DNA of 26,198 nucleotides, from NCBI GenBank assembly GCA_031372565.1, contig JANMLN010000037.1:1-26198 (forward strand), in the 5' to 3' direction. Position numbers: made by a program. The stretch's first letter is position 1; the number at the start of each line of letters is the position of its first letter. This document shows positions 24,001-26,198 of the stretch, piece by piece. The DNA comes from Gemmatimonadota bacterium. GTDB lineage: Bacteria > Gemmatimonadota > Gemmatimonadetes > Gemmatimonadales > Gemmatimonadaceae.

Positions 24001-26198
24001 CGCGCGCCTCGGCGAGGCGGGCGAGGACTTGGGCGGGGGTCAGCGGAACGGCGCTCATGTGGAGGCGAGTGACTGCGGTGGGAGAGCGGTGAGGACAACG
24101 CGCGGGAGATGACGAATCCGCGAGGGGCGCACAAGGGCTAGATGTGAATGCTGCGCCCCATCACGGCGAGCGCGGCTTCCTTGACGGCTTCGTTGAGCGT
24201 CGGATGCGAGTGCACCGTGATCCCGATGTCCTCGCTCGACCCGCGCCACTCCATCGCGAGCACGGCCTCGGTGAGCAGGTCCGCCGCGTTCGCGCCGATG
24301 ATGTGGCAGCCCAGCAGTTCGTCGGTGGTGGCATCAGCGATGAACTTCACGAAGCCCTGCGTTTCGGCCATGGTGCGCGCGCGGCCGTTGGCGCTGAACG
24401 GGAACTTGCCAACCTTGTACGCGCGCCCTTCGGCCTTGACCTCGTGTTCGGCCATGCCGCAGCTCGCGATCTCGGGCCACGTGTACACGACGCTCGGCAT
24501 CGTACGGTAGTGCATCTCGCTGTGGTGGCCGGCAATCACCTCGGCCGCCACCACGCCCTCTTCCTCCGCCTTGTGCGCGAGCAGCTTGCCGCCGACCGCG
24601 TCACCAATGGCGAACACACCGTCGAGGTTGGTGCGCATCTGGTGATCGACCACGATCTCGCCACGCTTGCCGAGTGCGAGACCCAGCGCAGCGGCATCGA
24701 TGCCGTTGAGCGCGGGCTTGCGGCCCACCGACACGAGCACGTAATCGGCGTCGATCGATTGCGCGGTGCCGTTGGTGTCGACGTGCACCTGCACGCCGCT
24801 GGATGAGACGTCGGCGCCGGTCACTTTGGTGCCGGTCATGAGCGCGAGGCCCTGCTTCGTGAAGATCTTCGTCGCTTCCTTGATCACATCCTCGTCGTTG
24901 CCGGGGAGAATGGTCGGCATGAACTCGACGACGGTGACCTTGGCGCCCAACCGGCGCCAGACGGAGCCGAGCTCGAGACCGATCACACCGCCGCCGATGA
25001 CGACCAGATGCTTGGGGACCTCGGGGATCTTGAGCGCGCCGACGTTCGAGAGGACGCGCTGCTCATCGAACTTCAGGAAAGGCAGCTCGACCGGCACCGA
25101 GCCGGTGGCGAGGATCACGTGCTTGGGTGTGTACGTCGTGACGGTACCGTCGGCGGCGGTGACGTCCACCACACGATTCGCCTTGAGCGTGCCGCGCCCC
25201 TTGGCCCACGTGATCTTGTTCTTCTTGAACAGGAACTCGACCCCCTTGGTGTTCGCGGCGACGACGTCGTCCTTCCGCTTCATCATGGTGGGGAGGTCGA
25301 GCTCGGGGCTGACCTTGACGCCATGCTCGGCGGCGTGGAGGCGCGCGAACTCGAAGTGCTCCGAACTCTGCAGGAGCGCCTTGCTGGGGATGCAGCCGAC
25401 GTTCACGCAGGTGCCGCCGAGCGTCTTGTCGAGCTCGACGCAGACCGTGGCGAGTCCGAGTTGGGCCGCGCGGATGGCGGCGACGTAGCCACCAGGGCCG
25501 CCGCCGATGATGAGGAGATCGGGGGTCAGGTTGGCGTCAGGCATGGCGTGAATCTAGCCGGGGCTGCGTGAGATTGGTTGTGTGGTTCTCTGGAGGGGTA
25601 TGGAGATTGGGAGAGGGGCGGGGGGGGAGACACAGAGCACACAGAGAATCACAGAGGGACTGCCATGTTGGATGCGCGTACGGATCGGATCATCGGGGCG
25701 GCGATTGCGGTGCACCGGGGGTTGGGGCCCGGGTTGCTTGAGTCGGCGTATGTGGGGGCGCTCGCGGTGGAACTCGCCGCGCGCGAGATCCCGTTTCGGC
25801 GCGAGGTCGCGCTGCCGGTCGTGTATCGCGGCCAAGCGCTGCACGTGTCGTATCGCCTCGACGTCCTGGCGTTCGAGGCGGTGGTGGTCGAGATCAAGAG
25901 CGTCGAAGCCATCCACCGCATCCACGTCCAACAGACGCTCACTTACATGCGGCTAGGCCAATTCCCCGTCGGCCTGCTATTGAACTTCAATGTCCCCATT
26001 CTGAAAGACGGCATCACCCGCCTCTCTCTGTGACCCTCTATGTGCTCTGTGTCTCCCAACCCCGCCCCACACCCCAAAAAAAAACCCCTCCCAACAGCTC
26101 AAACCACAAACATCGCAAACGGCTATTAAAACAAATAATTCACCCCCAACAAAAAAAACACCCAAAACATAAAATACATAAACAGGATATAGTACGAA

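Follow-up and report, generated by a model that had tools for sequence, protein, structure and literature searches.

The window analysed here is a stretch of 26,198 nucleotides, contig C134 of the Gemmatimonadota genome G000, which carries the studied locus. Towards its right end lies a small GxxExxY gene between two inverted, inward-facing repeat arms (Table 1), antisense to a host gene for which lpdA is our own, presumptive label. The initial annotation had described this layout for a gene of unknown function, and both the profile scores and the detection of inverted pairs agree with it. The stop codon of the gene falls within the right arm. The longest inverted pair in 24500-26198 consists of 25615-25659 and 26023-26067, 45 nt that are 82% complementary. 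An alignment of the copies in the genome gives a single arm of about 70 nt, with a GGAGGGG outer end, degenerate purine-rich words and three CACAGAG-like words separated by variable spacers. Because the arms extend outward to the GGAGGGG end, the unit spans about 25592-26091. As DNA, 25585-26075 folds into one long stem (z -5.3), and one arm alone has no structure (-3.2 kcal/mol, z -0.3 as RNA; 0.0 kcal/mol, z 0.8 as DNA); the arms are therefore not REP-type palindromes. Of the earlier description as a non-palindromic repeat of about 30 nt, the lack of a palindrome stands and the length has to be more than doubled. No sigma-70 promoter or terminator match was found in 25400-26198, and a search of Rfam gave sub-threshold hairpin matches only.

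Table 1. Features of the GxxExxY locus in the window, and core matches elsewhere in G000 (contig names given)
Feature	Position	Strand	Basis or remark
lpdA-like host gene (pyridine nucleotide-disulphide oxidoreductase)	24138..25544	-	profile match
Left arm, ~68 nt	25592..25659	+	GGAGGGG outer end, degenerate purine-rich words, then GGGAGA-CACAGAG-CA-CACAGAG-AAT-CACAGAG; copy alignment
Left-arm word-array core, 31 nt	25627..25657	+	query for genome search
GxxExxY gene, 122 aa, predicted PD-(D/E)XK nuclease	25665..26033	+	PF13366, TIGR04256; conserved residues; predicted fold
Right arm, inverted; core 26025-26055	26023..26091	-	inverted-pair detection, copy alignment, contig comparison
Low-complexity contig tail	26118..26198	.	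without support from independent contigs
Gene-less inverted pairs	C11:19200/19378, C26, C92, C116, C192		intact
IS-split pair	C35/C41		8-bp duplication
Single arms	C11:21566, C95, C102, C114		partner of C11:21566 degenerate, at contig end

The sequence itself has uneven support. Contigs from two runs of one study, possibly the assembly's own, match 25606-25841 exactly. Independent contigs differ from the window in 10 letters over 25761/25818-26117, and none is placed past 26117; the tail of the window is partly miscalled, probably including the outer right arm past about 26060. A candidate joint 25656-26026, suggested by contig placement with a side of 27 nt, was set aside and may stem from other arm copies. 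The cassette lies upstream of lpdA in G000, G002-G005 and G094; among 30 family loci it does so only in G000, G005 and G094, G083 being too short to judge. A neighbour found in G002-G005 is located on a different contig in G000.

The protein scores 128 bits with PF13366 (cut-off 22) and 130 bits with TIGR04256 (cut-off 35), which makes it a member of the GxxExxY or PDDEXK_3 family, and tblastn finds a single locus with such a homolog in G000. An AF2 model built with an 89-row alignment reached a pLDDT of 96, against 44 from the single sequence. Structure comparison of the AF2 model places it nearest to Cas4 SSO0001 (Z 7.9, rmsd 4.2, 100 residues), lambda exonuclease and Hjc; Foldseek returned no structure at E<=1e-3, and a sequence search of the PDB yielded nothing significant. 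E26, D66, E76, K78, Q90 and Y94 are conserved in at least 90% of the 89 alignment rows, and we take this E...D...ExK...QxxxY set to be the motif of Cas4, lambda exonuclease and RecB-type enzymes. With PD-(D/E)XK enzymes as top fold matches and the acidic and lysine catalytic residues in place, the window protein is predicted to be a PD-(D/E)XK nuclease with an intact catalytic site. The ratio dN/dS is about 0.10 between G000 and G003 and 0.15 between G002 and G004, and the gene is therefore under purifying selection. Prediction of a homodimer scored 0.00, and the ESM Atlas returned only members of the same family. Among 50,697 phage records the protein has no match and among plasmids it has 8, and none was confirmed in viral contigs with a single-protein query, which finds close relatives only.

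With five or fewer mismatches, the 31-nt core matches 18 times in G000 and not once when the genome is reversed; at 8 mismatches, genome and control give 3 each. Two of the 18 lie at the gene; the others comprise five inverted pairs that are intact but have no gene, a pair that an insertion sequence (IS) splits, and four single arms, so the 16 further copies counted before, mostly in gene-less pairs, were recovered. Their intergenic position was also recovered: 14 of the 18 are clear of any proxy gene, and the other four (C92, C95 and two at C116) overlap one because start codons were called too early, as judged from the gap to pccA, ortholog matches and domain positions. The split at C35/C41 and its 8-bp duplication are present as claimed; the family name IS256 is a presumptive label, a 28-aa piece of the element having no Pfam match. 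The arms are found at junctions such as sufB-sufC, after sufD, pccB-pccA, after a methylmalonyl-CoA mutase gene and after thiC. The interiors of the gene-less pairs, 71-164 nt long, are mutually unlike, with no gene remnant visible by eye. In 16 of 31 loci no more than 33 nt separate pccB from pccA; in three (G000, G003, G005) the gap holds these arms. Five further pccB-pccA loci are filled by unrelated inverted 7-mer arrays.

Several other elements share this landscape. The five arrays just mentioned (L309, L318, L320, L323 and L331, in G030, G102, G092, G094 and G080) are built of other period-7 words and represent a further repeat family. In G000, all five ends found of one IS (C35/C41, C102, C133, C34) fall inside repeat elements, three in CACAGAG pairs and two in CGTC-type repeats, and this IS may target such repeat hairpins. 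The CGTC-type repeats give 422 pattern hits in G000 and 0 in the control, and they occupy junctions that are filled by CACAGAG pairs in relatives; at G000:C168:33512-33724 (L201), a GIY-YIG gene (PF01541, 41 bits) lies between inverted hairpin repeats of this type, in an Ssn-like arrangement. The gene that comes after sufD in G002 and G004 has in front of it, in G000 (C4:1-430), the outer half of a right arm, while AT-rich DNA has taken the place of the arm's inner part.

Arms of this kind are general among homologs of the gene. From 150 loci collected, four duplicates and two with short flanks were dropped, leaving 74 loci from the genome collection and 70 from relatives; a metagenome set of 80 loci with 75 distinct proteins, six of them short, left 69 to be scored. 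Inverted flanks with a score of at least 18 were present at 68/74 and 42/70 loci (the own locus counted) and at 56/69 loci, respectively, against 0/74, 1/70 and 0/69 for shuffled flanks and 22 of 1113 control genes of G000, eight of which have the other repeat family in their upstream flank. These fresh tests bear out the generality proposed earlier. Outward-facing arms are found in a minority of homolog loci. At G064:C180:9000-9609, an array-like expansion precedes the GxxExxY gene upstream: five CACAGAG arms, all on the same strand and spaced at about 140 nt. The genes of L015 and L034 (Acidobacteriota) and of L082 and L094 (same order as G000) adjoin the same host gene, in two phyla and in both orientations; this host gene is a shared hot spot.

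The word of which the arms are composed follows the protein. A quick tree separates two protein clades (SH-aLRT 99). Of the labelled clade-1 loci, 92 of 93 have a word with final G (10 unlabelled); of the labelled clade-2 loci, 14 of 15 do not, and in this clade 26 of 41 relatives' loci lack a word of the search pattern. The prediction that new clade-2 homologs from metagenomes would have non-G words held at 64 of 64 labelled loci, all of them CRCRGAT, with five unlabelled; the clade-1 word is CRCNRAG. Protein clade predicts flanking word, the G/T split of the words being a single evolutionary event. Other words, such as CATGAAG or those like GACAGGAT and CATCCGAT, occur at L115, L117, L133, L136 and L137 and are missed by the CRCNRAN pattern. 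No residue-to-base code is claimed: positions 6, 7 and 102 seemed associated, but with only two independent pairs, in a set (L003-L080) biased towards the NFNVPILK seed, and low host GC behaved alike.

The same correspondence is seen at the level of genomes, in a survey of 61 of which 33 have a GxxExxY gene, with up to seven matches per genome. At least 10 RAG triplets occur in 13/21 genomes with a clade-1 gene against 4/40 without (reversed-pattern control at most 8), and at least five GAY triplets in 8/23 genomes with a clade-2 gene against 0/38 without, or in 7/22 when the unpublished genome G012 is left out. Split by the other clade's gene, GAY triplets are unrelated (4/21 vs 4/40) and RAG triplets show a weaker link (10/23 vs 7/38), since many genomes carry both clades. 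The word patterns were designed from these same flanks, kin among the genomes are not independent, a few of the hits counted are the arms at the gene itself, and partial genes were given no clade. Within these bounds the claim that genome-wide repeats go with the gene is upheld for each clade. In G011, G047 and G055, two word families only two letters apart coexist in the same genome and stay distinct, each following its own clade. The association is not strict: 8/21 clade-1 genomes have fewer than 10 RAG hits and 15/23 clade-2 genomes fewer than five GAY hits; G029 (97% complete, 22 hits) and G048 (90%, 12 hits) have repeats and no GxxExxY gene was found in them; and in G061 and G063 the sole gene is CACAGAG-flanked, yet CACAAAG copies outnumber CACAGAG ones (8 vs 5 and 14 vs 6).

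Close relatives of G000 reveal what happens to the arms over time. At the lpdA locus, variant A is present in G000 and G003 and variant B in G002, G004 and G005. Over G001 to G005, variant A is counted 0, 0, 7, 0 and 0 times and variant B 8, 19, 0, 15 and 16 times, in agreement, for each of the four gene-bearing genomes, with the arms beside the gene; in G001 (79% complete) no gene was found. Six gene-less sites with A arms in G000 (C26, C35/C41, C192, C95, C102, C11:21566) hold B arms in relatives. Similarity, expressed as alignment score per base over 72-nt arms (14 arms in G000, the pattern having missed 4), is 0.72 between different sites of G000 and 0.55-0.76 within other genomes; at the same site, G000 compared with G001, G002, G004 or G005 gives 0.42-0.49, equal to different sites. 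The arms of each genome are thus rewritten in place and share the variant of its gene, even at orthologous junctions. That the dispersed variant matches the one at the gene, as first noticed in other genomes, is confirmed in G002-G005 and by arm similarity, with G061 and G063 as exceptions. Local arm-to-arm homogenisation is unsupported, partners being no more alike than non-partners (0.72 vs 0.71). For REPINs, the REPORTH study describes the same, a mix at 13 of 20 fully conserved sites, which 'may be overwritten' (10.1101/2024.10.14.618302).

Older, degenerate variant-B arms are also found in G000, as pairs at C18:44839-44979, C30:30331-30635, C23, C199 and C40. Some of these pairs enclose a GC-rich terminator-like hairpin, similar to one that pairs at different sites in G001 and G004 contain. 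G000:C155 (1591 nt), with variant-B arms after a second sufD end, is 99.5% identical to G002 over 620 nt and is probably a contaminant contig.

Not only the arms but the whole cassette can be exchanged. One cyanobacterial junction holds a CACAGAG cassette in G061, G063 and G073 and a CACAAAG cassette in G062 and G071. Over 330 nt the genes of G062 and G071 do not differ (100% identity), and their flanks agree at 93.8 and 95.6%; G061 and G062 are 97.2 and 95.1% alike in the flanks and 69.4% in the gene, with the other word on both sides, and the G061 gene is 88.6% identical to that of the more distant G073. The exchanged tract begins some 50 nt outward of the left arm and includes the right arm up to its outer end. 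A DNA tree places the G062 gene inside the CACAAAG clade (96/97), and a clade of G061 and G062 is narrowly rejected (AU p 0.042). An 'empty' allele in G070 was set aside as a guide to the boundaries; as its sister G063 is filled, and G073 too, it probably arose by secondary deletion. At the window's own locus, G003 and G004 are 89% alike in lpdA and 62% in the GxxExxY proteins. The two are sisters for the other neighbour (100/99), and their GxxExxY proteins group with G000 and G002, respectively; the lpdA tree alone is compatible with vertical descent (AU p 0.45). These comparisons, all between MAGs, show that gene and both arms can be replaced in place between lineages.

The dispersed cyanobacterial copies are mostly single arms. 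At one such site (C), an arm and about 20 nt stand before the Shine-Dalgarno sequence in G062 and are missing from G061 and G063; this one filled/empty site, with flanks 86-89% alike, shows no target duplication. At two others (A and B; L233-L245), the single-arm junctions hold other genes in close relatives, by eye a toxin-antitoxin-like pair, an acetyltransferase-like gene or a small secreted-protein gene.

A mechanism can be proposed. We lean slightly towards the view that the gene and its two arms constitute a word-directed nuclease-plus-repeat system that acts through host recombination, similar to RAYT or Ssn and distinct from a transposase. The enzyme would recognise its cognate word array, CRCNRAG in clade 1 and CRCRGAT in clade 2, and would nick or cut at or beside the arms, most likely when these are single-stranded or in the long arm-arm stem. 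As a hydrolase it would not join strands itself; host recombination would mend the cut from another arm, so that arms are overwritten and homogenised and new ones are seeded now and then. At gene-filled sites, repair might copy in the whole cassette, a homing-like replacement, and inserts would persist mainly at stop-to-start gene junctions. Mobilisation by the protein is what we infer. Arms travel with the gene by linkage, and a match between flank and clade alone does not, therefore, show recognition; the same junctions are filled by unrelated repeats elsewhere, so that the choice of sites may reflect host tolerance only. Extended to the family, the proposal becomes more tentative, and we give it somewhat less than an even chance: GxxExxY proteins would be tiny nucleases reading tandem 7-nt arrays with clade-specific, swappable specificity, which combine, through host recombination and without a transposase, homing-like replacement of their cassette with a genome-wide rewriting of arms and form a third, PD-(D/E)XK-based class in many phyla.

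Other explanations have to be weighed against this reading. The repeats could act at the RNA level, the arms pairing in mRNA at cistron junctions as 23S intervening sequences do, with the protein or RNase III acting on the RNA and host selection for transcript processing keeping the arms. The pairs indeed form long hairpins, with RNA z values from -8 to -15 in four of the five and of -1.4/-3.0 in C11. Those G000 sites at which both neighbours are readable are co-oriented junctions, among them sufB-sufC, pccB-pccA and the one beside thiC; by a crude proxy, so are 33 of 41 callable homolog loci. Words are conserved while spacers vary, as in selected binding sites. We nevertheless consider an RNA role unlikely: the single arms of cyanobacteria are unable to pair, an arm resembles its partner no more than it does non-partner arms, the nearest structures are those of DNA nucleases, and overwriting and cassette swaps at the DNA level are left unexplained. 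A comparably small chance is given to repeats that spread and homogenise by themselves, through slippage, template switching or gene conversion, with the gene as a passenger or as an antidote that resolves hairpins. Such autonomy would account for the repeats without a gene in G029 and G048, the variant mismatch in G061 and G063 and the other 7-mer arrays at pccB-pccA, where no GxxExxY gene is present, and an antidote would suit the Hjc resolvases among the fold matches. However, GAY arrays with at least five hits are confined to genomes with a clade-2 gene, and the two word families stay apart within G011, G047 and G055, each with its own clade. Repeats without a gene are moreover familiar from REPINs, which likewise outlast a lost RAYT (10.1101/2021.07.10.451892).

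That the gene is the transposase of an ordinary insertion sequence, and the gene-less pairs MITE-type internal deletions, appears very improbable to us. Its position between inverted ends, up to seven genes per genome, the filled and empty junctions at pccB-pccA and the opposite orientation at one shared site (L082/L094) would be expected of such an element. PD-(D/E)XK chemistry is hydrolytic, though, and a hydrolase cannot join strands; this and the lack of transposon marks in interiors and ends make the model unlikely. Neither shared interiors (judged by eye) nor a target-site duplication (at the one filled/empty site compared) were found, and the data fit overwriting and in-place recombinational replacement better than MITE-like transposition, because interiors are unrelated and no target duplication is seen. 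In addition, co-resident genes are mostly of different subfamilies instead of copies, L124 and L126 (92%, matching flanks) representing a segment duplication; the gene keeps one locus across a genus; and phages and plasmids provide the few matches given above. Hardly any weight falls on the idea that the gene is a host-domesticated restriction of incoming single-stranded DNA carrying arms, as for SsnA in Neisseria, with repeat spread being secondary. The gene layout is the same as NTS-ssnA-NTS (PMC11893778), the gene is under purifying selection, and an Ssn-like GIY-YIG gene with its own repeats is co-resident in G000; the patchy presence (33/61 genomes) and frequent swaps, on the other hand, look selfish, and the single arm lacks a hairpin, unlike NTS.

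The word-directed nuclease system, if true, would bring to three the number of unrelated enzyme folds associated with dispersed intergenic repeats, and its purely hydrolytic enzyme would argue that cutting and host repair suffice. How such repeats spread and are overwritten is an open question even for REPINs. Each GxxExxY gene comes with a candidate recognition sequence and hence a testable substrate for a widespread family whose function is listed as 'Unknown' (PMC3424549, table), and a family of 120-residue nucleases with natural specificity variants could be a source of tools, as Ssn is. GxxExxY has 0 mentions in the accessible text of PMC11893778, and a literature search found no paper tying GxxExxY or PF13366 to repeats, most subscription journals and supplements (including those of PMC11893778 and PMC3733652) lying outside its scope. 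The association is real and widespread, and apparently no publication has described it. Some of these words may be listed in a 2008 study of the small dispersed repeats in Nostoc.

Among known systems, the 23S rRNA intervening sequences that bear an ORF resemble the present units in that the loop of a long hairpin contains a small gene. The present units differ in lying between protein genes and in having dispersed gene-less copies; no TIGR02436 gene was found in G000. Cas4, lambda exonuclease and RecB-type nucleases (PDB 4IC1, 4R5Q, 1AVQ) have the fold in common with the window protein (best Z 7.9), which differs from them in having no cysteine for an Fe-S cluster, in its length of only 122 aa and in being tied to its own repeats. 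The initial proposal of a third kind of repeat-associated nuclease beside RAYT and Ssn gains support from the flanks, the clade words, the genome-level association and the matching dispersed variants. With the Ssn/SRM systems of GIY-YIG ssDNA nucleases (PMC11893778) and CGTC-type REPs (PMC3733652), the family shares a small single-domain hydrolytic nuclease that lies between inverted copies of a genome-wide repeat, and enzyme-specific repeat variants; it departs from them in fold, which is GIY-YIG in Ssn, and in its arms, SRMs being self-hairpins. The window protein has no GIY-YIG domain, and the GIY-YIG genes of G000 are located elsewhere. REPIN/RAYT systems likewise have inverted repeats on both sides of the gene, with further intergenic doublets scattered over the genome whose occurrence goes with that of the gene. 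The HUH/Y1 tyrosine transposase is replaced here, however, by a protein for which Pfam and NCBIfam give only PF13366 and TIGR04256 and whose predicted fold is PD-(D/E)XK, and the short palindromic, GTAG-tagged hairpins by non-palindromic tandem word arrays with an unstructured single arm. Compared with REPINs (PMC3116915; 10.1101/2021.07.10.451892; 10.1101/2024.10.14.618302), GxxExxY genes also reach up to seven per genome and cross phyla together with their arms, and the copies number in the tens, not the hundreds.
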